A DNA stretch of 64,000 nucleotides from Candidatus Omnitrophota bacterium (GCA_028865345.1 JAGWKL010000003.1:128184-192183), one strand, 5' to 3'. Counted from the stretch's first letter, positions 4,235 through 15,078 are shown. The notes: generated by a model not told the origin, from the sequence alone. Numbers and translations: made by a program.

Positions 4235-5005
4235 ATGCCTGCCGGGGTTGACAAATCAGCCTGGGGAGGGATAATAACCCTCATTATGAAAACCGATAAA
4301 GACCTGGTTTTTCCAAAATCTGATTCCTGGAAAATGTTCAATGCTATTGCCGGGCGGTATGATTTCTTAAACCGCCTTCTGTCTCTGGGTCAGGACCTGC
4401 GCTGGCGCCGGGCTTTGAAAAAATTCTTGCCTGATTCGAACAAACAAACCATCCTGGATTTGGCCACAGGCACCGCGGACGTTTTGATAGCCCTGGCCCG
4501 GGACAATCCCAGGATCCATAAGGGGTACGGCATTGATCCGGCCGTCAAAATGCTCAGCCTGGGCCGAAAGAAAATTGCGTCCCGCCATCTGGAAGGCCGC
4601 CTTTCCTTGCAGGAAGCCGATGCACAGGCGCTGCCTTTCTCCGACGGGACTTTTGACGCTGTGACCATTGCCTTCGGCATTCGCAATATCCCGGACCTTC
4701 GCCTGGCGCTCTTGGAAATGTACAGGGTCGCCAAAAAGGGCGGGCGTGTGCTGATCCTGGAGTTTTCGAAACCCGAAAATCCTTTTTTAAAGGCCGGCCA
4801 TTGGCTTTATTTGCAGACGGTTGTGCCTCTGGTGGGTTTTTTGTTTTCCGGAAATTTTAAAGCGTACACGTATTTAAATCAAACCATCCAGACCTTCCCC
4901 TACGGAGACCGCTTTTGCAAGATCCTCAAGCAGATGGGATTTGTCAATATCAAGCCGTATTTTCTGATGGGCGGGGTGGCCACCATTTATGTTGCCCAAA
5001 AATAA
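4235..5005 (+). CDS. ubiE: Demethylmenaquinone/ubiquinone C-methyltransferase (UbiE/MenG family)
   Basis: KMFNAIAGRYDFLNRLLSLGQDLRWRR and SAM-binding LDLATGTAD motif; an alternative start at 4286 is possible. Confidence 0.85.
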   Translation: MPAGVDKSAWGGIITLIMKTDKDLVFPKSDSWKMFNAIAGRYDFLNRLLSLGQDLRWRRALKKFLPDSNKQTILDLATGTADVLIALARDNPRIHKGYGIDPAVKMLSLGRKKIASRHLEGRLSLQEADAQALPFSDGTFDAVTIAFGIRNIPDLRLALLEMYRVAKKGGRVLILEFSKPENPFLKAGHWLYLQTVVPLVGFLFSGNFKAYTYLNQTIQTFPYGDRFCKILKQMGFVNIKPYFLMGGVATIYVAQK

Positions 5006-6308
5006 TCTCATTTCTTTGCAAGAAGCCAGGGGGCAGATGTTCTCCTTTATTAAGGCGTACAAGCCGTCTAAAACCATCCGGCGCCTTGAGATCAAGGTCC
5101 GCCCCGTGGACATGATGGCCTGGCTGACCTTGCAGAAGGATGAGGTCAAAATTTATGGCGCCAACCAAAGCGACAGCATGAGCATTGCAGGCATAGGAGA
5201 GGCTGTTTGCATCAGGGCCGGACGGCTGGGCTCGTTTAAAAAAGTATTTCAAAGCTTACGGTCTTTTTTATTGCCGCAGTACCCGTATTTGCAATGGTAC
5301 GGAGGGTTTTGTTTTGATGACCGCCATCAGGACGGGGATTGGAAAGAGTTCGGCGCGTACCGTTTTATCCTGCCGCGCTTTGAGCTGGCCGCCCAGGCCG
5401 GCAAGATGATATTTTGCTGCAATTTAATAGGCAAGATCGATACCAGGGAGGTTTTAAAGCAGCTGGCCGCCATCAGGGCCGACGGTTTTGGCGCTTCCGG
5501 CGGCGGACGGAATGTCTTTTCAATTTCCCGGCGGACAGACCAGCCTGACCAACGGCGATGGGAAAACGGGGTCAGCCGGATTTTAAGAGCCAGGCCCGTC
5601 AAGAAGGTGGTGCTGGCGCGTAAGACCGTCCTCGATTTCCAGCAGGTCCCCGATCCCTGGGCCATGCTGCGGCAATTAAAAGCCGTCACGCCCAATAGCT
5701 ATCATTTCGCATTCCAGTTTAAGAATAAGGTCTTTTTAGGAGCGTCGCCCGAACGCCTTTATCAACGTTTTCAGAGGTCTATAGAGTCCGAGGCGTTGGC
5801 CGGCACCATGCCGAAATCCGCAGCGCCTTCGCTGCTGCAGAAGTCTGAAAAAAATAAATATGAGCACGCGTTGGTCGTCGATGCCATTGACGGTTCTTTT
5901 AAACAATTGTGTACGGCCTTCCGGAAGGACAGGCGGCCCGGTATTTTGACGCTGCCCAACGGGCATCACCTGATCACTAAATTTCAGGGACAATTAAAAG
6001 ATGGCGTAAATGACGAAGATATCCTACAATTCCTTCATCCGACTCCGGCATTAGGCGGTACCCCAAGACCGGCAGCCTTGAAGCTGATCCGCATCCTGGA
6101 AGGGTTTTCGCGGGGCTGGTATGGCGCGCCGATAGGCTATGTCGGCCTGGATTGGGCGGAATTTGTGGTGGGGATCCGTTCGGGCCATCTTCAGGGCAAA
6201 AAATTATCGGTTTTTGCCGGCGCGGGGATCGTACAGGGTTCCGAGGCCAGGGCGGAGTGGAATGAAGTTGAGAATAAGATCAGTAATTTTATAAAAATCA
6301 TCCGATGA
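4989..6308 (+). CDS. menF: Isochorismate synthase (menaquinone-specific)
   Basis: Chorismate-binding-enzyme C-terminal motifs (PTPALGGTPR, GAGIVQGSEARAEWNEVENK); located between ubiE and menD. Confidence 0.8.
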   Translation: MLPKNNLISLQEARGQMFSFIKAYKPSKTIRRLEIKVRPVDMMAWLTLQKDEVKIYGANQSDSMSIAGIGEAVCIRAGRLGSFKKVFQSLRSFLLPQYPYLQWYGGFCFDDRHQDGDWKEFGAYRFILPRFELAAQAGKMIFCCNLIGKIDTREVLKQLAAIRADGFGASGGGRNVFSISRRTDQPDQRRWENGVSRILRARPVKKVVLARKTVLDFQQVPDPWAMLRQLKAVTPNSYHFAFQFKNKVFLGASPERLYQRFQRSIESEALAGTMPKSAAPSLLQKSEKNKYEHALVVDAIDGSFKQLCTAFRKDRRPGILTLPNGHHLITKFQGQLKDGVNDEDILQFLHPTPALGGTPRPAALKLIRILEGFSRGWYGAPIGYVGLDWAEFVVGIRSGHLQGKKLSVFAGAGIVQGSEARAEWNEVENKISNFIKIIR

Positions 6309-8050
6309 ACTTTGCCAATATCAACCACTGCTGGGGAAGCCTGATCATCGAAGAGCTTTCGCGCCTGGGGGTGGATTATTTCTGTGTAGCCCCGGGTTCG
6401 CGCAGTTCGCCTTTGGTCATTCCGTTGGCCCAAAAAGGCTTGAAGAGTTTTGTACATTTCGATGAGCGCGGCCTTGCTTTTCATGCCATGGGCTACATTG
6501 CCGCAACCAGGAAACCTGCGGTGATCATCAGCACGTCAGGCACGGCCGGAGCGAATTTTTATCCGGCGATTATTGAGGCTTCAAAGAAAAAACTGCCGCT
6601 CATCGTCATCACCGCCGACAGGCCGCCGGAATTAAGGCAAACCGGCGCCGTGCAGACCATTGACCAGGTCGGGTTATATGGGAAGTATGTGTGTTGGGCG
6701 ATGGACATGCCCTGCCCGGATACCAAGATCAGCCCGGAGTTTGTCCTGACAACCGTGGCCCAGGCGTGGTACCAGGCGCTGAGGCATCACAGGCCGGTGC
6801 ACATCAACTGCATGTTCCGCCAGCCGCTGGCCCTCACAGCCGGCCGGGAAAACCTTAAAACCTACCTTAAATCTTTGGATAGGTGGGCCGCCTCGCAAAA
6901 GCCCTATACGGAATATGCTACGGGCTTTGGGCCGGCCCCTTTAGCTGTCCCTAAGAAAATAGCGGCACGGCTTCAGGCCATCAAGAACGGCGTCATCGTC
7001 GTCGGCAGGCTCGCAAGTGCCGAAGAAGGCGGGCTGGTCGTGGCCCTGGCTGAAAAGTTAGGCTGGCCTGTTTTTGCGGATGTCTCTTCGGGGCTGCGTT
7101 TGGGGCACGCCCGGGGATGTTTGATCCATTATTTCGATCATCTGTTATCGTCAGATCAATTGGCCGGGAAATTGAATTTTGACGGGGTGCTTCATCTGGG
7201 GGGACGGATGACGTCGGTGCGTTATTACGACTTTATTCAAAAACGACGGCCTGCGGAATATATCATGGTCATCAACCACGCCTTGCGCAACGACCCCAAC
7301 CATCAGGTCACCTTGCGCGTTGAATCCGGTGTCGGTCATTTTATTCAGACGGTCATCAGGTTTATCAAGGCGCGCAAAGGCTCCCGCGCGTTGAAGATTT
7401 TGTCCAAAGCCGATGAGGCCGCCGACCGATCGATCGAAAAGTCTTTTGTCCACGATGAAGCTCTCAGCGAACCCCGCGTGGCCCGTCTGGTTTCTCAGCT
7501 GGTGCCTGCAGGCCAGGGGCTTTTCTTAAGCAACAGCATGCCCATCCGTGATATGGCCAATTTTGCGGATTTTAAAGGCAACCCGGTCCTTGTCAACGCC
7601 AATCGCGGGGCGAGCGGCATCGACGGCATTATTGCTTCCGCCGCGGGATATGCCCGAGGGTCGGGCAGGCCCGCCACCTTGATGATCGGCGATCTGGCCG
7701 CCTTGCATGACCTTAATTCCCTGGGCATGCTTGGCGCTCTGTGCGTGCCTTTGGTCATCGTGGTCCTCAACAACGCAGGAGGGGCCATCTTTTCTTTTTT
7801 GCCGATCGCCGGATTCAAGGAAGGCTTTGAAAAGTTTTGGGCCGCGCCGCATTCTTACACCCTGGAGGCGGCGGCCCAAATGTTCGGGCTCGGTTACAGG
7901 CGGCCCATGGGTGCGGGGCAGTTTAAGAAAGATTATGCCCGGGCGCTCGGATCCCGGATTTCAACGGTCATTGAAGTCATGACCAACCGGGAAGAAAATT
8001 TAAGAATACATAAGCAATTGCAAGAGACTATCCATAAAGTCATTTCATAG
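6305..8050 (+). CDS. menD: 2-succinyl-5-enolpyruvyl-6-hydroxy-3-cyclohexene-1-carboxylate synthase (MenD, ThDP-dependent)
   Basis: ThDP-enzyme architecture (GSRSSPL, GDLAALHDLNSL, VLNNAGGAIF) and length 581 aa. Confidence 0.85.
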   Translation: MNFANINHCWGSLIIEELSRLGVDYFCVAPGSRSSPLVIPLAQKGLKSFVHFDERGLAFHAMGYIAATRKPAVIISTSGTAGANFYPAIIEASKKKLPLIVITADRPPELRQTGAVQTIDQVGLYGKYVCWAMDMPCPDTKISPEFVLTTVAQAWYQALRHHRPVHINCMFRQPLALTAGRENLKTYLKSLDRWAASQKPYTEYATGFGPAPLAVPKKIAARLQAIKNGVIVVGRLASAEEGGLVVALAEKLGWPVFADVSSGLRLGHARGCLIHYFDHLLSSDQLAGKLNFDGVLHLGGRMTSVRYYDFIQKRRPAEYIMVINHALRNDPNHQVTLRVESGVGHFIQTVIRFIKARKGSRALKILSKADEAADRSIEKSFVHDEALSEPRVARLVSQLVPAGQGLFLSNSMPIRDMANFADFKGNPVLVNANRGASGIDGIIASAAGYARGSGRPATLMIGDLAALHDLNSLGMLGALCVPLVIVVLNNAGGAIFSFLPIAGFKEGFEKFWAAPHSYTLEAAAQMFGLGYRRPMGAGQFKKDYARALGSRISTVIEVMTNREENLRIHKQLQETIHKVIS

Positions 8051-11000
8051 ATGAATTTTGCCGAGCTCGATTTTAACGAAGAATTCGCCGCGGCTTTCGA
8101 GGCCCTGGAAAATACCGGCGGGCATGTCTTTGTGACCGGCAAGGCGGGTTGCGGCAAATCGACCCTGCTGCAGTATTTCCGGGCCAAAACACCCAAAAAC
8201 GTCGCCGTGCTGGCGCCCACCGGGGTTGCGGCCATCAACGTCCAGGGGCAAACCATCCATTCCTTTTTTAATTTCAAACCCGACGTGACTCCCGAGACGG
8301 TAGGGGACATCCCCGTGCGCAAGGCCAAGCGCAAAATGTATCAGCAGTTGGACGCCCTGATCATCGACGAAGTCTCCATGGTGCGTGCGGACCTTATGGA
8401 TTGCATCGATGTTTTTCTGCGTCTTTACGGGCCGCATTATGACCGCCCTTTCGGGGGAGTGCAGATGGTCTTTTTCGGCGACCTGTTTCAATTGCCGCCG
8501 GTGGTCGGCCCCAAAGAGCGGGATATTTTCAGGGGCCATTATGCAACGCCGTATTTTTTTTCAGCCAAGGCTTTTGAAACGCTGGATTTCAGGGTTTTGC
8601 AATTGGAGAAAATTTACCGCCAAAAGGATGAGCATTTCATCCGTTTACTCAATGCCGTCCGGCAAGACAGCGTCGAAGGTCATCACTGGGAGGCGCTCAA
8701 CCGCCGGTTTAAGCCGCAACACCGGTTTGCCCCGGAGGAATTTTATATCGTGTTGACCACCACCAACGCCATTGCCGACAAGGTCAACGCCCAGCGCCTG
8801 TATAACCTGCCGGGTCTTCCCAAAATTTATAAGGGCATCATATCGGATAAATTCGAGCAAAAATCCCTGCCCGCTCCGGAGGTCCTGGAGCTTAAAGGCG
8901 GCGCGCAGATCATGATGTTAAGCAACGATCCGGACAAACGCTGGGTCAACGGATCTTTAGGCAAGATCACCTCCATCGTGGTTGGCAGCGATGGGGATGA
9001 TGTGATCATGGTGGAATTGGAAAACGGCGGGTCGGTTGACGTCAAAAAACACACCTGGGAAATCTACCAATATTATTTCGATGAGGTCAACAATGCGATG
9101 GCTTCCAAGGTGGTTGGAAATTTTACGCAATATCCCCTGAAATTGGCCTGGGCCGTGACCATCCATAAATCCCAGGGCCAGACCTTTGACCATGTGGTCA
9201 TTGATGTGGGGTGGGGGACTTTCTCCCATGGCCAGATGTACGTGGCGCTGAGCCGCTGCACGACGCTGGAGGGTATCGTCCTTAAACAACCGCTCAACCA
9301 AAAGCATATTATGATTGATGAGCGGATCTTGCAGTTCATGAGGAAGTTCATGTTCCTTTTGTTCCTCCCGTTGTTGGCAAGCCTGGGGCAGGCCCAGACA
9401 CCGACGCTTGACCGCAGCCGTCTCGTTACCCAGGATTTAAGCCGGATAGAGAACAAAGAGGCTGATCCCAATGCTTGGGAAGAAAAGAACAGCGACCAGC
9501 CGTACGTGGCGCTTCTGGCCGAGACGGATACGGTCATCCATAACGACTGGTCCGTGACCCAAGATTATCATGCCCGCGTCAAGATCCAGAAGGAGGCGGC
9601 CAAGAAGCTGGGATCATGGCCCATTTATTACAACAAAGCCCGGGAACAGATCACGGATATCGAAGCTTATTTTGAAACACCCGACGGCAGGAGGCTCAAG
9701 GCCACCGACATCAAGGATTTGCCGGCCTACGGCCAGTCGCCGCTTTATTCCGACATGCGCCTTAAGGTCATCAGTTTCCCTCAGATCACCATCGGCACGG
9801 TCATTGATATACGGATCAAGACGAAGATTTTTAAAGAGGAGATCCCGAACCAATTTTGGGACGAAGTGACCTATCCTTCCATTCCTACCAAATTTGCGCG
9901 GTACACCTATGTTTTTCCCGCGGATAAGCCCATCCGTTTTTCCGCTTACAATAATAATATGCACCCGCTGATCGAAAAAACCGGCGGTACGGTCAAATAT
10001 TCTTTTATTTTTGAAGACACGTCTTACAGCGAGGATGAGGATTTCATGCCCCCTTCTGATGAGACGGTGGGAGTGCTGTCCCTGTCGTCCATCAGTGATT
10101 GGAAACAGGTGGCCGGCTGGTGGCGTGATGCCATCCATAAAAATACCGTGGATGATCCCGGGATTTCCGCCGAAGTCTCGGCGTTGACCAAAGGGAAAAC
10201 CGGCGATAAAGAAAAATTGCACGCTGTCCTGGAATTCATCCAGGACAATTTCCGTTATGTGCCCATGAGCATGGGGAACCATGCGGTGGGGTTGCATCCG
10301 ACCCCGGAAATCTTTAAAAGCCGCTACGGCGACGGCAAAGACTTGGGGCTGTTGGCCAGGCAGATGCTTGAAATGGCCGGCATTCATGCCGACATCTGTT
10401 TGATGAGCGATGAGTTCAGCGGCGATCCGCAGCACCGCCTGCCCAGCCTTTCGGTTTTCGACCGTGTGATCTTACAGGCGAGTGTCAACGGCCGGAAATA
10501 TTTCGTGGACCCCTTGGCTAAGGGGTATGACTTGGGCCAATGGCCTTCCAGTTATGATAATGCCTATGTGCTGGTCATTGCCTCCGGTTCCAGCAGCTTT
10601 CAAAATATTCCCGTGGCCGGCGGGTCTTTCCATGCCGTCGCCTCCGACAGCGACATCACCGTTGCCGATGACGGTTCGGCCCAATTCCGTGTGCATGTCA
10701 AGATGCCGGTAGAAGCTTCGGAGGATTTCAAGAGCAATTGGGACCCGGCCGATGATGGATCCAAGCAGAAATTCTTTGACAGATTGCAGGCCACCTTTGC
10801 CCAGGGCGGTAAAATAACCGACCGCCGGGTGAAAGGCCTGGATAAACGCTACGGCCAGGTTGAATTTACGTTTAAGTATACTGCGGCCCAAGTCTATCAA
10901 ACGGTCAATGACATGCTCCTTTTAAGGGAACAGGACCAGGGCGATGTGCCTGATTTTGAGCTGAACGCTCCCCGTCATTATCCTATATTTGTGCCCACCA

Positions 11001-11302
11001 ATTCCCAAATCATCGACCGTATCACCTATCATGTTCCTGCTGATCTGAAGATAAGCTACGTTCCGCCGGGCTATGATCTGGCATCGGCTTTTATGACAGC
11101 CTCTGCCAAGTATACCAAAGGCGACGGCACCATCACCGTGGAAAAGATTTACCATATCAAACGCGCCCTCATCCCTCCGGCGGGCTTTGCCGATGTGGAG
11201 AAATTTTGCCAAGAGCTTGCGAAGAACAATGGCATGTATATCGTCTTAAGAAGGAAATCCGGAGTTTCTCCGGAAACCGAATCGTGGCTTAAAAGCCGAT
11301 GA
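8051..11302 (+). CDS. Continuous 1083-aa ORF. The N-terminal ~430 aa form a PIF1-family helicase. The C-terminal ~650 aa form a DUF3857/transglutaminase-like/DUF3858-type protein that starts with its own signal-peptide-like segment.
   Basis: N-terminal GKAGCGKSTLL Walker A and LAPTGVAAINVQGQTIHSFF Pif1 motifs. Near nt 9339 the motif MRKFMFLLFLPLLASLGQAQT (n-region, h-region, AxA-like site) starts the second module. Transglutaminase-like motif RYGDGKDLGLLARQ lies in the C-terminal part. No stop codon separates the two parts. Confidence 0.6.
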   Translation: MNFAELDFNEEFAAAFEALENTGGHVFVTGKAGCGKSTLLQYFRAKTPKNVAVLAPTGVAAINVQGQTIHSFFNFKPDVTPETVGDIPVRKAKRKMYQQLDALIIDEVSMVRADLMDCIDVFLRLYGPHYDRPFGGVQMVFFGDLFQLPPVVGPKERDIFRGHYATPYFFSAKAFETLDFRVLQLEKIYRQKDEHFIRLLNAVRQDSVEGHHWEALNRRFKPQHRFAPEEFYIVLTTTNAIADKVNAQRLYNLPGLPKIYKGIISDKFEQKSLPAPEVLELKGGAQIMMLSNDPDKRWVNGSLGKITSIVVGSDGDDVIMVELENGGSVDVKKHTWEIYQYYFDEVNNAMASKVVGNFTQYPLKLAWAVTIHKSQGQTFDHVVIDVGWGTFSHGQMYVALSRCTTLEGIVLKQPLNQKHIMIDERILQFMRKFMFLLFLPLLASLGQAQTPTLDRSRLVTQDLSRIENKEADPNAWEEKNSDQPYVALLAETDTVIHNDWSVTQDYHARVKIQKEAAKKLGSWPIYYNKAREQITDIEAYFETPDGRRLKATDIKDLPAYGQSPLYSDMRLKVISFPQITIGTVIDIRIKTKIFKEEIPNQFWDEVTYPSIPTKFARYTYVFPADKPIRFSAYNNNMHPLIEKTGGTVKYSFIFEDTSYSEDEDFMPPSDETVGVLSLSSISDWKQVAGWWRDAIHKNTVDDPGISAEVSALTKGKTGDKEKLHAVLEFIQDNFRYVPMSMGNHAVGLHPTPEIFKSRYGDGKDLGLLARQMLEMAGIHADICLMSDEFSGDPQHRLPSLSVFDRVILQASVNGRKYFVDPLAKGYDLGQWPSSYDNAYVLVIASGSSSFQNIPVAGGSFHAVASDSDITVADDGSAQFRVHVKMPVEASEDFKSNWDPADDGSKQKFFDRLQATFAQGGKITDRRVKGLDKRYGQVEFTFKYTAAQVYQTVNDMLLLREQDQGDVPDFELNAPRHYPIFVPTNSQIIDRITYHVPADLKISYVPPGYDLASAFMTASAKYTKGDGTITVEKIYHIKRALIPPAGFADVEKFCQELAKNNGMYIVLRRKSGVSPETESWLKSR

Positions 11303-11338
11303 CATTGCCAAGTCGCTTGGCAAAGCAAGGAACAGGGA

Positions 11339-11941
11339 GTGTTGAAAAATTTTTGGGTCTTCTTGGCAATAGCAGCGGGGGCATGGTTGTTATTTCATCA
11401 TCCCAAAGCCCATTGGCAGGGGCAATTGGCGCCGGCGGACCCTGTGCAAAGTCCGGATAATTTGCCGGCCTCATGGAAGTATAAGGATTTTACCGTGACA
11501 CCCCGGGCCCGATACCATATCAAGGCGGTGGTCCTTTCCAAACACCATTATTGGGGCGAAGTCGAGATTGAGGACACGATCTCATATTATGATCTGGCCC
11601 TGGGTTGGGGGCCCATGAGCGATGCGGCTGTAATCAATCGACTGAACATTACCCAGGACACCCGGTGGTACAATTATTCGTGGCATAATGACCCGCCTAT
11701 CCCCCTTGAGGAGATCATTTCCCACAGCTCCAACAATCACATCATTGCCGGCAATAAGAATGTTTTGGATGCCGTGGCTCATTTTAAGAGGTATGATGTG
11801 GTTGATCTGCAGGGATATTTGGTGGATGTGAAGCTTGACAATAAAGACTGGACCTGGCACACGTCGCTTTCGCGAACCGATACCGGCGGGGGATCATGTG
11901 AGTTGTTTTGGGTGGATGACGCCTTTGATTTAAGTATATGA
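11339..11941 (+). CDS. Hypothetical protein with N-terminal signal-anchor/TM segment
   Basis: 200-aa ORF tightly coupled (ATGA) to the downstream gene; N-terminus LKNFWVFLAIAAGAWLLF is hydrophobic; no recognisable family. Confidence 0.5.
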   Translation: MLKNFWVFLAIAAGAWLLFHHPKAHWQGQLAPADPVQSPDNLPASWKYKDFTVTPRARYHIKAVVLSKHHYWGEVEIEDTISYYDLALGWGPMSDAAVINRLNITQDTRWYNYSWHNDPPIPLEEIISHSSNNHIIAGNKNVLDAVAHFKRYDVVDLQGYLVDVKLDNKDWTWHTSLSRTDTGGGSCELFWVDDAFDLSI

Positions 11942-13878
11942 AAAGCCTGTGGAATGACAAAGAAGCTGTAAAATCAGGACCAGACGCTCTCGCCTTGCGC
12001 GTTTATACCTCGCGGTTGCTTGGGCGCAAGCCGGGCCTCGTCATGCACGGAGGGGGAAACACATCGGTCAAGGCCGAGGTGAAGGACTTTTTTGGCCGAA
12101 AGCAGGAAGTGATTTATATCAAGGCCAGCGGTTGGGATCTGGCCACGATCAAATCCGAAGGTTTTGCGGCGGTCAAAATGGATGCGCTTCTGGCAATGGC
12201 GGCCATGAAGCAATTGAGCGACACGGACATGGTGCGCGGGCAGAGGGCCGCCATGCTTGATCCTTATGCGCCCAACCCTTCAGTGGAAGCTATTCTTCAT
12301 GCCATTATCCCTTATAAGTACGTGGACCATTCGCATGCCGATGCTGTGGTGACCATCACCAACACCCCCGATGGAAAACGGCGCATCCAAGAGATTTACG
12401 GCACTCGTGTATTGATTGTCCCTTACGTGATGCCCGGATTTGTTTTGGCGCGCAAGGTTTATGAAGTGACGCGAGGGGGCGATTGGTCCCGATACGACGG
12501 CATGATTTTATTAAACCACGGCCTTTTTACCTTCGCAAACAGCGCCAAAGAAAGTTATGAGAACCATATCAGGCTGGTCACCAAGGCCGAACAATACATA
12601 AAGAAGAGGAACATTAAATTGGCGTCCGCCAAGCCCATGCCAGACGATTTGGTAGGATTGGCCCGTCTTCGACGGGCGGTGAGCCGCGTTCAGGGCGGAG
12701 CCGTGGTGGCGTTATTAAAAGATGACGCTCGCAGCGTCGGTTTCAGCCGGTTGTCCAAAGTCAATAATTTAGCCGCACGCGGGACCCTGACCCCGGACCA
12801 TGTGATCCGTACCAAGTCTAAGGCCGTTATCATTCATAAAAATGTTGAAACGGATGTGAATGAATACGCGAGAACTTATAAAGAATATTTTGACCGGCAT
12901 GCGGGAGATCAATTGAAATGTTTGGATCTGGCGCCGCGCTGGGCCGTATGGCCAGGCCATGGGGTGGTGACTTTCGGTCGTTCCCCGAACGAAGCTGCGA
13001 TTGTCGGCGATATCGTTGACCATACCCTGCCGGCCATCCAACGGGCAGAGGTTATGGGAGGCTGGAAGACCATAAGTGAAAACGATCTCTTTGATGTCGA
13101 ATATTGGGAATTGGAACAAGCCAAGTTGTCTAGAAACCCGAAGCCTAAAGGCTTAATCGGGAAAGTCGCTTTGGTGACGGGCGCCGCTTCGGGTATCGGC
13201 AAGGCTTGCAAAGAGTGTTTACAGGCTGAAGGAGCCAATGTGGTCGGTTTGGACATTAAAAGCGGCCCCGATCATATGCAGTGTGATGTGACCCGGGAAG
13301 CGCAAGTCAGGAAAGCCGTTGAACATACCGTGCGCCGTTTCGGAGGACTGGATATCATCGTCAGCAATGCCGGGGTTTTTCCGCCGAGCATGAACATCGA
13401 GTCAATGCAGCCGTCAGCCTGGGAGAAAAGCCTGCAGTTAAATTTAACCGGTCACCAGTACCTGATCAAGCACGCCATTCCTTATTTGACTTACGGCATT
13501 GACCCGGCGATCGTCATCATCGCCTCCAAAAATGTTCCCGCTCCCGGCCCGGGCGCTGCGGCTTATTCCGTCGCTAAAGCAGGGCTGACACAGTTAGGCA
13601 GGGTGGCGGCCCTGGAATTGGGGGCCAAAGGAGTCCGGGTCAACATGGTCCATCCCAATCAGGTCTTTGATACCGCCATATGGACCAGGGACGTTCTTGA
13701 GAAACGCGCCAGACATTACGGCATGTCCGTTGAGGAATACAAGACCAGTAATATCCTGCATACAACCATCACTTCAAAAGATGTGGCCCAACTCGTCTGC
13801 GCCATGGCCGGTCCGGCCTTTGCCAAGACCACCGGTTCACAAATTCCTATCGACGGCGGCAATGAAAGGGTTATTTAA
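11938..13878 (+). CDS. Bifunctional class II aldolase/adducin-domain plus short-chain dehydrogenase (rhamnulose-1-phosphate aldolase/SDR-like)
   Basis: N-terminal MKSLWNDKEA...LALRVYTSRLLGRKPGLVMHGGGNTSVK is characteristic of this bifunctional family. The C-terminal SDR domain has GKVALVTGAASGIGKA and YSVAKAG motifs. Confidence 0.8.
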   Translation: MKSLWNDKEAVKSGPDALALRVYTSRLLGRKPGLVMHGGGNTSVKAEVKDFFGRKQEVIYIKASGWDLATIKSEGFAAVKMDALLAMAAMKQLSDTDMVRGQRAAMLDPYAPNPSVEAILHAIIPYKYVDHSHADAVVTITNTPDGKRRIQEIYGTRVLIVPYVMPGFVLARKVYEVTRGGDWSRYDGMILLNHGLFTFANSAKESYENHIRLVTKAEQYIKKRNIKLASAKPMPDDLVGLARLRRAVSRVQGGAVVALLKDDARSVGFSRLSKVNNLAARGTLTPDHVIRTKSKAVIIHKNVETDVNEYARTYKEYFDRHAGDQLKCLDLAPRWAVWPGHGVVTFGRSPNEAAIVGDIVDHTLPAIQRAEVMGGWKTISENDLFDVEYWELEQAKLSRNPKPKGLIGKVALVTGAASGIGKACKECLQAEGANVVGLDIKSGPDHMQCDVTREAQVRKAVEHTVRRFGGLDIIVSNAGVFPPSMNIESMQPSAWEKSLQLNLTGHQYLIKHAIPYLTYGIDPAIVIIASKNVPAPGPGAAAYSVAKAGLTQLGRVAALELGAKGVRVNMVHPNQVFDTAIWTRDVLEKRARHYGMSVEEYKTSNILHTTITSKDVAQLVCAMAGPAFAKTTGSQIPIDGGNERVI

Positions 13879-15078
13879 TTATCTCCGGCGCAGGCGCATG
13901 CGGCGCGGTGTCTGAAAAGCCATGACCGGCGCCTTGGGCTGATGGAATTTCTCCAAAGGTATGGTGGGGTGGCTTTGGGCCACGGGAAGGGTCTGGTTGA
14001 TAATGCGTTCGATGTTTTTGACGTCCAGCCGCTGGTCAGGAGTGGCAAAGGAAGCGGCATGGCCGGCAAAACCCGCGCGGCCGGTGCGGCCGATGCGGTG
14101 GACGTAATTTTCCGGATCATCGGGCAGGTCGTAATTGATGACCAGCTCTATGCCTTTGACATCGATGCCGCGCGCGGCGATGTCCGTAGCCACCAGAATG
14201 CGGTATTTCCCGCGCTTGAAGCCTTCCAAAGCCTCCTTGCGCTGTCCCAAAGAGCGGTCTGAATGTGTTTCCGCGGCATTATGCTTCGCGTGGCGCAATT
14301 GCCTGGTCAGACGCGCTACGCCGAATTTGGTACGGCAAAAGATCAGCACCGATCCTTTATATTGGGCCAGCGTACTTTCCAATAATTGGTTTTTAAATTC
14401 TTTGCGCACGATGAACAGTTCCTGGGAGATCTTGTCCGCCATGGTGCCGGCAGGCGCCACTTCCACGCGCACGGGTAGTTTCATATAGCTTTTGGCAATG
14501 TTCACGATCGTTTCCGGCATGGTCGCTGAAAAGAGCATGGTTTGCCTGTCCTGAGGGACTTGCTTGAGCAGGGTGGCGATCTGGGGCCCAAAGCCCATGT
14601 CCAGCATGCGGTCGGCTTCGTCCAGGACCAGGATATGGATGTCGTGAAGGTTTAAGGTTTTCTGCTGCATGTGGTCGATCAGGCGGCCGGGGGTACCGAT
14701 CAAAATGCGCGGGTGCGAGCGCAGGTGTTGGATCTGTTTGCCCATGGAATCCCCGCCGATCAAGACCACGGTGCCCATTCCCAGGGCGGTGGCTATCTTG
14801 CGTAGGCTCTCATCGACCTGAATGGCCAATTCGCGGGTGGGGACAACCACCAGGGCGCGGCCCTTGATCTGGGCCAGGCGCTGGATCAAAGGGATGCCGA
14901 AGGCAATGGTCTTGCCTGTGCCGGTCTGGGCAATGCCCATGACATCCTGGCCTTGCAGCCCTATCGGAATGGCCTGATACTGAATTTTAGTGGGGGTCGT
15001 GAATTTTAAACGTTCGATGACGCTTAAAATTGCGGGAGCGATGCCTAATCCGTAAAAGTTGGGTTCGTTTTGAGACAT
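13879..15078 (-). CDS. DEAD-box ATP-dependent RNA helicase
   Basis: AQTGTGKT (motif I), VLDEADRMLDMGF (DEAD), SAT, HRIGRTGRAG motifs; its stop codon abuts the stop of the convergent upstream gene. Confidence 0.9.
   Translation of the reverse strand: MSQNEPNFYGLGIAPAILSVIERLKFTTPTKIQYQAIPIGLQGQDVMGIAQTGTGKTIAFGIPLIQRLAQIKGRALVVVPTRELAIQVDESLRKIATALGMGTVVLIGGDSMGKQIQHLRSHPRILIGTPGRLIDHMQQKTLNLHDIHILVLDEADRMLDMGFGPQIATLLKQVPQDRQTMLFSATMPETIVNIAKSYMKLPVRVEVAPAGTMADKISQELFIVRKEFKNQLLESTLAQYKGSVLIFCRTKFGVARLTRQLRHAKHNAAETHSDRSLGQRKEALEGFKRGKYRILVATDIAARGIDVKGIELVINYDLPDDPENYVHRIGRTGRAGFAGHAASFATPDQRLDVKNIERIINQTLPVAQSHPTIPLEKFHQPKAPVMAFQTPRRMRLRRR

Follow-up and report, generated by a model that had tools for sequence, protein, structure and literature searches.

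A recurrent fusion of a Pif1-family helicase with a predicted exported DUF3857 protein in Candidatus Omnitrophota

How can a helicase expected in the cytoplasm and a protein expected outside it be encoded by one uninterrupted reading frame? This question is raised by a 64,000-nucleotide stretch of DNA from a Candidatus Omnitrophota bacterium (GCA_028865345.1, JAGWKL010000003.1:128184-192183), hereafter the window, in which translation of positions 8051-11302 (plus strand) gives a single stop-free open reading frame (ORF) of 1083 codons plus a stop codon. On this single chain, Pfam places a PIF1 domain at amino acids (aa) 18-203 (99.7 bits, cut-off 25.9), a UvrD_C_2 domain at aa 365-404 and a DUF3857 domain (PF12969) at aa 499-656 (88.7 bits versus a cut-off of 24.6). 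With NCBIfam, only RecD-like matches below threshold were obtained for the helicase half and no match for the C-terminal half. The last helicase residues, ...DERILQF, are encoded up to nt 9337, after which the frame runs on with ATG(9338) AGG AAG TTC ATG(9350), i.e. the junction codons GAG CGG ATC TTG CAG TTC, followed by ATG AGG AAG TTC ATG TTC CTT, read ...ERILQF and then MRKFMFLLFLPLLASLGQAQTPT. The original prediction, made by a model from the sequence alone, had described a stop-free frame leading from a helicase that ends near nt 9335, through a signal-peptide-like junction, into an exported half of DUF3857/transglutaminase-like/DUF3858 architecture. Translation and the Pfam domains agree with the continuous frame, the last helicase codon indeed ends at nt 9337, and the two remaining points also stood, the first because of the charge, hydrophobic core and AxA-Q site described below, the second because of the Pfam DUF3857 domain and a fold match to 3KD4. 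The two ATG codons had been misplaced by 1-2 nt, at 9339 and 9348. An identical protein (P0001) was found by homologue search in the NCBI Omnitrophota metagenome-assembled genome (MAG) GCA_028871075.1, contig JAGWOE010000006.1.

Comparison of homologues indicates that the fusion is real, conserved, recurrent and derived from a translationally coupled pair of adjacent genes. A search with the whole ORF retrieved about 35 full-length fused homologues of 1071-1094 aa (54-75% identity), all of them with both domain sets and drawn from independent NCBI, JGI, ENA and Logan assemblies. In the main clade, to which the window belongs, the ratio of nonsynonymous to synonymous substitution rates (dN/dS) ranges from 0.04 to 0.10 in the helicase half and from 0.07 to 0.11 in the DUF3857 half, at dS values of 0.75-2.2 that are near saturation. 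The DUF3857 halves of two fused loci from outside this clade, L001 and L040, give a dN/dS of 0.12 at a dS of about 0.4. With dN/dS of 0.04-0.12 overall, both halves are functional genes under strong purifying selection. An assembly error, or a stop codon lost only in this MAG, was rejected in view of the roughly 35 independent fused homologues and of the selection on both halves.

When the C-terminal half alone was used as query, stand-alone relatives of about 650 aa appeared (41-54% identity). Species-representative genomes were then scanned, and the 53 Omnitrophota loci obtained were classified together with the earlier loci. At 18 distinct split loci the helicase gene lies immediately upstream of the DUF3857 gene in the same orientation, the adjacent-gene arrangement that a 'Rosetta-stone' fusion presupposes. 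These split loci share the order ubiE-menF-menD-Pif1-DUF3857-aldolase/short-chain dehydrogenase (SDR), with two genes for helicase and DUF3857 protein. The boundary between them is variable: the two genes lie 55 nt apart in L006 but overlap by 16 nt in L007 and by 4 nt (ATGA) in L008. Fused genes occur in the window's clade, which comprises 13 loci plus L057 (intact junction, frameshift further downstream), and in two more lineages, L001/L002/L040 and L003-L005. Neither a helicase nor men genes lie in the vicinity of about 20 more distant DUF3857 homologues (30-40% identity). The split helicases end in ...D-x-R-[VI]-x-x-F, one further residue, 4-20 more residues and a stop; the residue after the invariant Phe is Met in 14 of 18, His in 3 and Lys in one (L051), and M430 of the fusion occupies the position of this helicase-tail residue. 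Every split DUF3857 gene opens with a classic signal peptide, e.g. MKKILLPLLSVLLCAPALA, cut, QE. The original prediction had considered two genes with a lost or mis-sequenced stop, and had proposed to compare orthologous loci. The lost stop holds as history, given the adjacent genes of the split relatives, and mis-sequencing does not, the fusion being conserved, selected and recurrent; the same comparison supports both an established family (about 35 continuous fusions) and a two-gene ancestry (18 split loci). A 'genuinely novel fusion', its third option, stands insofar as no description was found in literature searches that included Omnitrophota with helicase and gene fusion with signal peptide; with its many orthologues, it is rather an established, unstudied database family. 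As a separate observation, the split sister group of the window's clade has a short spacer before the DUF3857 start with a conserved CTATACTAAAATC(C/G)ACC(A/C)-ATG and no Shine-Dalgarno (SD) sequence (L006 ~6983-7000, L034 ~5971-5988, L036 ~350-367); this motif may represent a -10-like box, in which case the leader would be very short.

The fusion seems to have arisen more than once. Neighbour-joining trees of about 26 taxa were built for each half and for the concatenated alignment, with 200 bootstraps, and the trees of the two halves agree. All 200 bootstraps recover the window's fused clade as monophyletic; none of the 200 unites all fused taxa in one clade, and none contains a fused-only clade joining any two of the three fused lineages. 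The outgroups are split. The junctions also differ: F-MKK-core in the window's clade, F-HKAKIQTK-core in L001 and F-HRKRVRSA-M-core in L003, the junction of L040 being that of L001 plus a 31-aa insert. With lineages that are never joined, different junctions and split outgroups, the parsimonious reading is that the genes fused at least three times independently. A single ancient fusion followed by fissions is less parsimonious, as it would need about four fissions and has to account for split outgroups and three different junctions. The absence of a stop at the junction was also considered as a sign of selection for continuity, and this was rejected. In the main clade F429 and M430 follow each other without a spacer, so that no point mutation can re-split the genes and the missing stop is not in itself evidence of such selection.

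By every sequence feature tested, the helicase half is a member of the PIF1 family (superfamily 1B, SF1B), with a predicted unwinding activity. Its PF05970 scores range from 99.7 to 102.2 bits, well above the cut-off of 25.9. Residues 6-429 align with residues 5-426 of the Sulfurihydrogenibium Pif1 chain in 8BNS (E 7.7e-155), and the cores of 8BNV (DdPif1, E 1.7e-116) and Bacteroides 5FHD (E 2.8e-89) align as well. Pif1-core homology ends exactly at F429; because the homology to solved cores stops there, the helicase can be considered complete, with no part missing. The motifs GKAGCGKST, IIDEVSM, PFGGVQ, GDLFQLPPV, YRQ, TIHKSQG and YVALSR are all present and invariant in 34 fused homologues, including residues G30, K31, A32, G33, G35, K36, S37 and T38 and the I105-D106-E107 triplet.

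The segment that follows has the composition of a signal peptide, for which we required a positive n-region, an h-region of 7-15 or more residues and small residues at positions -3 and -1. It reads M-R-K, then FMFLLFLPLLASLG, then G-Q-A followed by Q, and signal peptidase I is predicted to cleave the A448-Q449 bond (nt 9394/9395). In the window's protein a charge of +3 precedes 14 uncharged residues, with a very hydrophobic stretch at aa 433-446. In the junction alignment, F-M-[KR]-[KQN], a hydrophobic core of 14-17 residues and A-Q-T-P are found in 31 of 34 sequences. Around the cleavage site, the clade has Ala at -1 in 30 of 32 members, Ala, Gly, Val or Ser at -3 in all 32 and Gln at +1 in 31. 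The uncharged run measures 14-17 residues at fused junctions versus 15-19 in the N-terminal signal peptides of the split orthologues, and both end in AxA, cut, [QDE]. By these simple criteria the junction segment is inseparable from the signal peptides of the split orthologues. Only its position is atypical: it occupies aa 430-448 of 1083, and such a segment stands at the N-terminus of a chain only in the split orthologues, or in the window if translation starts at ATG 9338. A stable signal-anchor, with about 18-20 or more residues and no cleavage motif, is a poor match for 14-17 residues and a conserved AxA-Q site. No 19-residue window of the whole protein has a mean Kyte-Doolittle hydropathy above 1.6, so that the segment is too short for a standard transmembrane helix and a long one is not supported.

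Charge on the two sides of the segment is uneven, with +3/+4 in the 8 residues on the helicase side and -2 to +1 in the 15 residues downstream. An N-in/C-out orientation is predicted from this difference. The original prediction had called the two halves topologically incompatible in one chain. That was wrong: chains that cross the membrane once, N-in/C-out, through a single hydrophobic segment have a standard topology, and the flanking charges fit it. ToxR/CadC, PASTA kinases and anti-sigma factors are N-in/C-out bitopic proteins of this kind. A full-length AlphaFold2 (AF2) model has a mean predicted local distance difference test (pLDDT) score of 68.5 and a predicted template-modelling (pTM) score of 0.51, with residues 420-471 below pLDDT 50. 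In this model, of moderate quality, no sign of packing was seen when docking of the two halves was looked for, and the halves look like independent modules. The signal-peptide segment has a pLDDT below 50 in this model and in the AF2 model of the C-terminal half.

These features are best explained, and we think probably correctly, by a tolerated, self-resolving fusion whose product is cleaved into two proteins. A gene for a cytoplasmic Pif1 core and its neighbour, a DUF3857 gene with a Sec signal, would have lost their boundary. In the absence of a stop, any ribosome completing the helicase necessarily runs on into the old signal peptide and the C-terminal half. The helicase half (aa 1-429) would fold in the cytoplasm, and the hydrophobic stretch (aa 433-446) would be recognised on leaving the ribosome and inserted co-translationally, N-in/C-out, at the Sec translocon. 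The ~635 remaining residues would then be threaded into the periplasm, and signal peptidase I would cut the conserved AxA-Q site at A448/Q449. The products would be close to the ancestral ones, an exported DUF3857 protein and a helicase in a 1:1 ratio, the sole change being a helicase with a short hydrophobic tail, perhaps held at the membrane, perhaps trimmed. Such a fusion would be nearly neutral. It would be easy to create by a small indel, since the genes of relatives overlap by 4-16 nt or sit 30-55 nt apart, and hard to reverse in the window's clade, where no spacer separates F429 from M430. Easy creation and hard reversal would explain both the at least three origins and the persistence of the fusion.

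Several points weigh against this explanation. The targeting, export and cleavage steps, and what becomes of the helicase tail, are predictions from sequence, and the signal-peptide and transmembrane calls were made with rule-based criteria only. The deeper nodes of the trees, which are neighbour-joining trees of only ~26 taxa, are weak (only 89 of 200 bootstraps make L003 and L022 sisters). Tethering might also be expected to carry a cost for the helicase, for which the model does not account. The other points concern the main rival for the window's clade, which remains internal initiation: the exported protein would come mainly from an independent start at ATG 9338 (M430), nested in the ORF, the full-length chain being a minor by-product that is tolerated or degraded. 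The junction ATG is kept in 31 of 32 main-clade members. The mRNA around it is AT-rich and weakly folded, with a minimum free energy of -8.4 versus -6.7 for the split starts and -12.6 for internal ATG controls (-7.5 for SD-led genes of the window). Finally, an SD sequence precedes only 16 of 44 naive gene starts of the window and none in its tightly packed genes, so that the absence of an SD is weak evidence.

Internal initiation, which the original prediction had listed as an option, is thus possible in this clade, and the form 'MKK + hydrophobic core' is how several split orthologues start. We nevertheless hold it to be rather unlikely as the main source of the exported protein. With a stop-free frame, making the helicase entails making the full-length chain, so that an internal start could only be an addition. 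No conserved SD precedes the junction ATG (GAGG at -16 in only 3-4 of 15 loci), no upstream stop is present for termination-reinitiation coupling, and synonymous variation upstream is not suppressed. Conservation of the Met needs no start function, since Met follows the invariant Phe in 14/18 split helicases at a non-start position; conserved Met430 was on these grounds rejected as proof of an internal start. After correction for GC content the difference from the controls vanishes and even changes sign, the junction being no less structured than they are (residual -2.3) and the accessibility signal being explained by base composition, and the search for RNA structure at the junction gave z = -0.06, no signal. 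Promoter-like sites are at chance level (3 found versus 3.3 expected), and one such match, at 9283-9312, falls in codons that are not conserved in relatives. Most telling is L001, which has no in-frame ATG, GTG or TTG between helicase and hydrophobic core and yet keeps its C-terminal half under purifying selection. With no canonical start and a dN/dS of 0.12, the exported half of L001 can only be made within the fused chain.

Less probable still is a functional trans-envelope unit of Pif1 and a periplasmic DUF3857 module, either tethered or with the helicase anchored in the membrane after cleavage; it could, for example, link the unwinding or handling of DNA at the membrane with a binding domain on the envelope side. 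If true, such a unit would explain the adjacency of the two genes in L051 and the at least three fusions. Its stricter form, which we regard as slightly more doubtful again, is a bitopic single chain in which an uncleaved signal-anchor ties cytoplasmic Pif1 to periplasmic DUF3857 as in ToxR/CadC and the linkage itself is selected, for instance to have helicase activity controlled or positioned by the envelope-side domain. The recurrence of the fusion and the positive charges on the helicase side of the segment would suit this form, as would the 31-aa longer linker of L040, which a flexible tether would tolerate, and the adjacency of the L051 pair outside the men operon, a hint of a functional link. 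The hydrophobic stretch, however, is short and often carries a central Pro, without the 19 residues above 1.6 expected of an anchor, and the signal-peptidase motif is nearly invariant, beyond what mere retention requires. Two separate proteins are moreover the ancestral and most widespread state, which means that physical linkage is not needed for function, and no packing between the domains is predicted.

An artefact or decaying locus (missed stop, frameshift or pseudogene) is hardly credible: defects do occur in related MAG loci (frameshifts in L017 and L057, an in-frame TAA in the C-terminal half of L018), but the same frame and junction recur in ~35 independent assemblies and 13 species-level loci of the clade, purifying selection is strong on both halves and the helicase motifs are all invariant. 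L017 and L057 (MFD isolates) belong to the fused clade; their frameshifts fragment the matches to the helicase or the C-terminal half and are possibly long-read indel errors. The TAA of L018 (7336-7338, EAS*DF) may be an error or real decay.

Coordinates of the fused gene, its parts and its neighbours in the window
Feature	Position (nt)	Strand	Basis
Fused ORF, 1083 aa plus stop	8051..11302	+	translation, homologue search
Complete Pif1 (SF1B) helicase core, aa 1-429	8051..9337	+	PF05970 99.7 bits; 8BNS alignment
Walker A / motif I, G30-KAGCGKS-T38	8138..8164	+	translation; invariant columns
Walker B / motif II core, I105-D106-E107	8363..8371	+	invariant alignment columns
Predicted internal Sec-type signal peptide, aa 430-448, MRKFMFLLFLPLLASLGQA, then QTP	9338..9394	+	rule-based criteria, alignment
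Predicted mature exported protein, aa 449-1083, DUF3857/transglutaminase-like/DUF3858 (BDI_1141-like) fold	9395..11299	+	AF2, 3KD4 match
DUF3857 domain PF12969, aa 499-656	9545..10018	+	Pfam
Transglutaminase-like core region, aa ~735-830, degenerate triad	10253..10540	+	alignments
Triad position Cys762 = Gly	10334-10336	+	alignment
Triad position His805 = Arg	10463-10465	+	alignment
Triad Asp820 retained	10508-10510	+	alignment
menD-like gene, stop abuts ATG at 8051, part of conserved neighbourhood	6305..8050	+	
Class II aldolase/short-chain dehydrogenase gene, conserved downstream neighbour	11938..13878	+	
DEAD-box helicase gene of conserved block	13879-15078	-	

The C-terminal half was modelled with AF2 at pLDDT 87.7 and pTM 0.83, low only in the first 25 residues of the model, the signal-peptide segment. 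Foldseek matched this model to 3KD4_A (E 7.5e-33, TM-score 0.79 normalised to the target). The next matches have TM-scores below 0.2 normalised to the query, which leaves 3KD4 as the sole real structural neighbour; a sequence profile search of the C-terminal half finds 3KD4 too (E 2.5e-9). For the window's copy, Pfam gave no Transglut_core match at E<=0.01. Only 10 of 34 fused and 8 of 19 split homologues have the full Cys/His/Asp triad, with the nucleophile motif YGD-C-KD; catalysis is for this reason not conserved in the family. In the alignments the triad states switch among close relatives (CHD, GRD, CRD, AHD, SRD). Enzymes do not usually show such flipping of Cys and His, which suggests that catalysis was lost repeatedly or that the core has a non-catalytic function. 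It is almost certain that the window's copy does not work as a cysteine enzyme. As its catalytic Cys and His are missing, the exported half is here more likely a binding or structural protein than an enzyme.

The fused gene lies in a conserved block (4235-15078) with the order ubiE-menF-menD-Pif1-DUF3857-(orf200)-aldolase/SDR, syntenic across most related Omnitrophota loci. The parenthesised orf200 (11339-11941, plus strand) sits between the fusion gene and the aldolase/SDR gene and encodes 200 aa with an N-terminal hydrophobic segment, MLKNFWVFLAIAAGAWLLF, and without a Pfam or PADLOC match; among ~60 related loci it is found only here and in L011 (79% identity). PADLOC also gave no match for the C-terminal half. 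The helicase half matched, as a generic SF1 ATPase, only parts of profiles that are much longer, and no defence-system model over its full length. L051, of a distant lineage, has a different setting: at 4338-7866 a Pif1 gene (458 aa) is followed by a DUF3857/transglutaminase gene (641 aa), and its neighbours are aroA, SUI1, ABC-F and a GTPase, with no men genes detected. Since L051 keeps the pair in this other context, the pairing is not merely a passenger of the men operon, and the arrangement suggests that it is older than the men-operon context.

If the model of a self-resolving fusion is true, a natural bacterial signal peptide acts in the middle of a chain, some 430 residues behind a folded cytoplasmic enzyme. 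These proteins would be, in effect, polyproteins processed by signal peptidase and a rare instance of an internal export signal that occurs naturally in bacteria. The family constitutes a comparative series, i.e. gene pairs separated by a gap, overlapping gene pairs and three independent fusions, one of them without an internal start codon, which may tell how readily bacterial secretion tolerates such fusions and what becomes of the upstream domain. It also calls for caution in annotation and in 'Rosetta-stone' inference, as parts that stay fused do not have to act in one and the same compartment. That a Pif1 helicase and an exported protein stay paired within a menaquinone operon is itself a puzzle, in a phylum without a cultured model.

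Among known systems, the bacterial Pif1 helicases (SsPif1 8BNS, DdPif1 8BNV, BsPif1 5FHD/5FTB and TePif1) have a core that corresponds end to end to aa 1-429 of the fusion. SsPif1, DdPif1 and TePif1 carry a single-stranded DNA-binding WYL domain at the C-terminus (PMC9964779, from which the assignment of 8BNS and 8BNV to SsPif1 and DdPif1 is also taken). In the fusion, by contrast, the core directly precedes a signal peptide and an exported protein. Most close database relatives of this Pif1 have a C-terminal WYL domain, RNase T or 5'-3' exonuclease, whereas the split relatives have a 4-20-aa tail only. Partner swapping at the C-terminus is, given these relatives, common in the Pif1 family; an exported partner is not. 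The nearest relatives of the core outside Omnitrophota (P0041-P0120) have WYL, RNase T, 5'-3' exonuclease, HEAT and Sel1 repeats as partners, and odd ones also occur, a zinc-dehydrogenase in P0044 and an RF-1 domain in P0049. It seems that this helicase core acquires C-terminal fusion partners unusually readily.

For the exported half the prototype is BDI_1141 of Parabacteroides distasonis (3KD4, annotated 'putative protease'), a DUF3857/transglutaminase-like/DUF3858 protein that matches over the whole length by both fold and profile. The two share only 14% identity, 3KD4 is a stand-alone protein whereas the window's protein lies behind a helicase, and the Cys and His of the transglutaminase triad, kept in only about a third to two fifths of the family, are gone in the window's copy. 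A literature search on DUF3857 returned almost nothing, only unrelated papers.

Two kinds of known systems resemble the fused chain as a whole. The ToxR/CadC-type proteins have the predicted order of the fusion, with a cytoplasmic N-terminal domain that is enzymatic or acts on nucleic acids, one hydrophobic segment and a periplasmic C-terminal domain; they differ by stable, uncleaved transmembrane helices of about 20 residues and by a function that needs the linkage, whereas the fusion has a short, cleavable-type signal peptide taken over from a separate gene. A literature search on internal signal peptides that are cut by signal peptidase yielded examples from viruses or eukaryotes only, and no natural bacterial one behind a large cytoplasmic enzyme. 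The structural polyproteins of flaviviruses and hepatitis C virus (HCV) have internal signal peptides that are cut by signal peptidase. The mechanism proposed here is the same, in that an internal signal starts translocation and signal peptidase separates the products, but these polyproteins belong to viral or eukaryotic endoplasmic reticulum systems and the fusion is bacterial. The fused protein would thus work like a signal-peptidase polyprotein with a topology like that of ToxR/CadC, and yet be a member of neither group.

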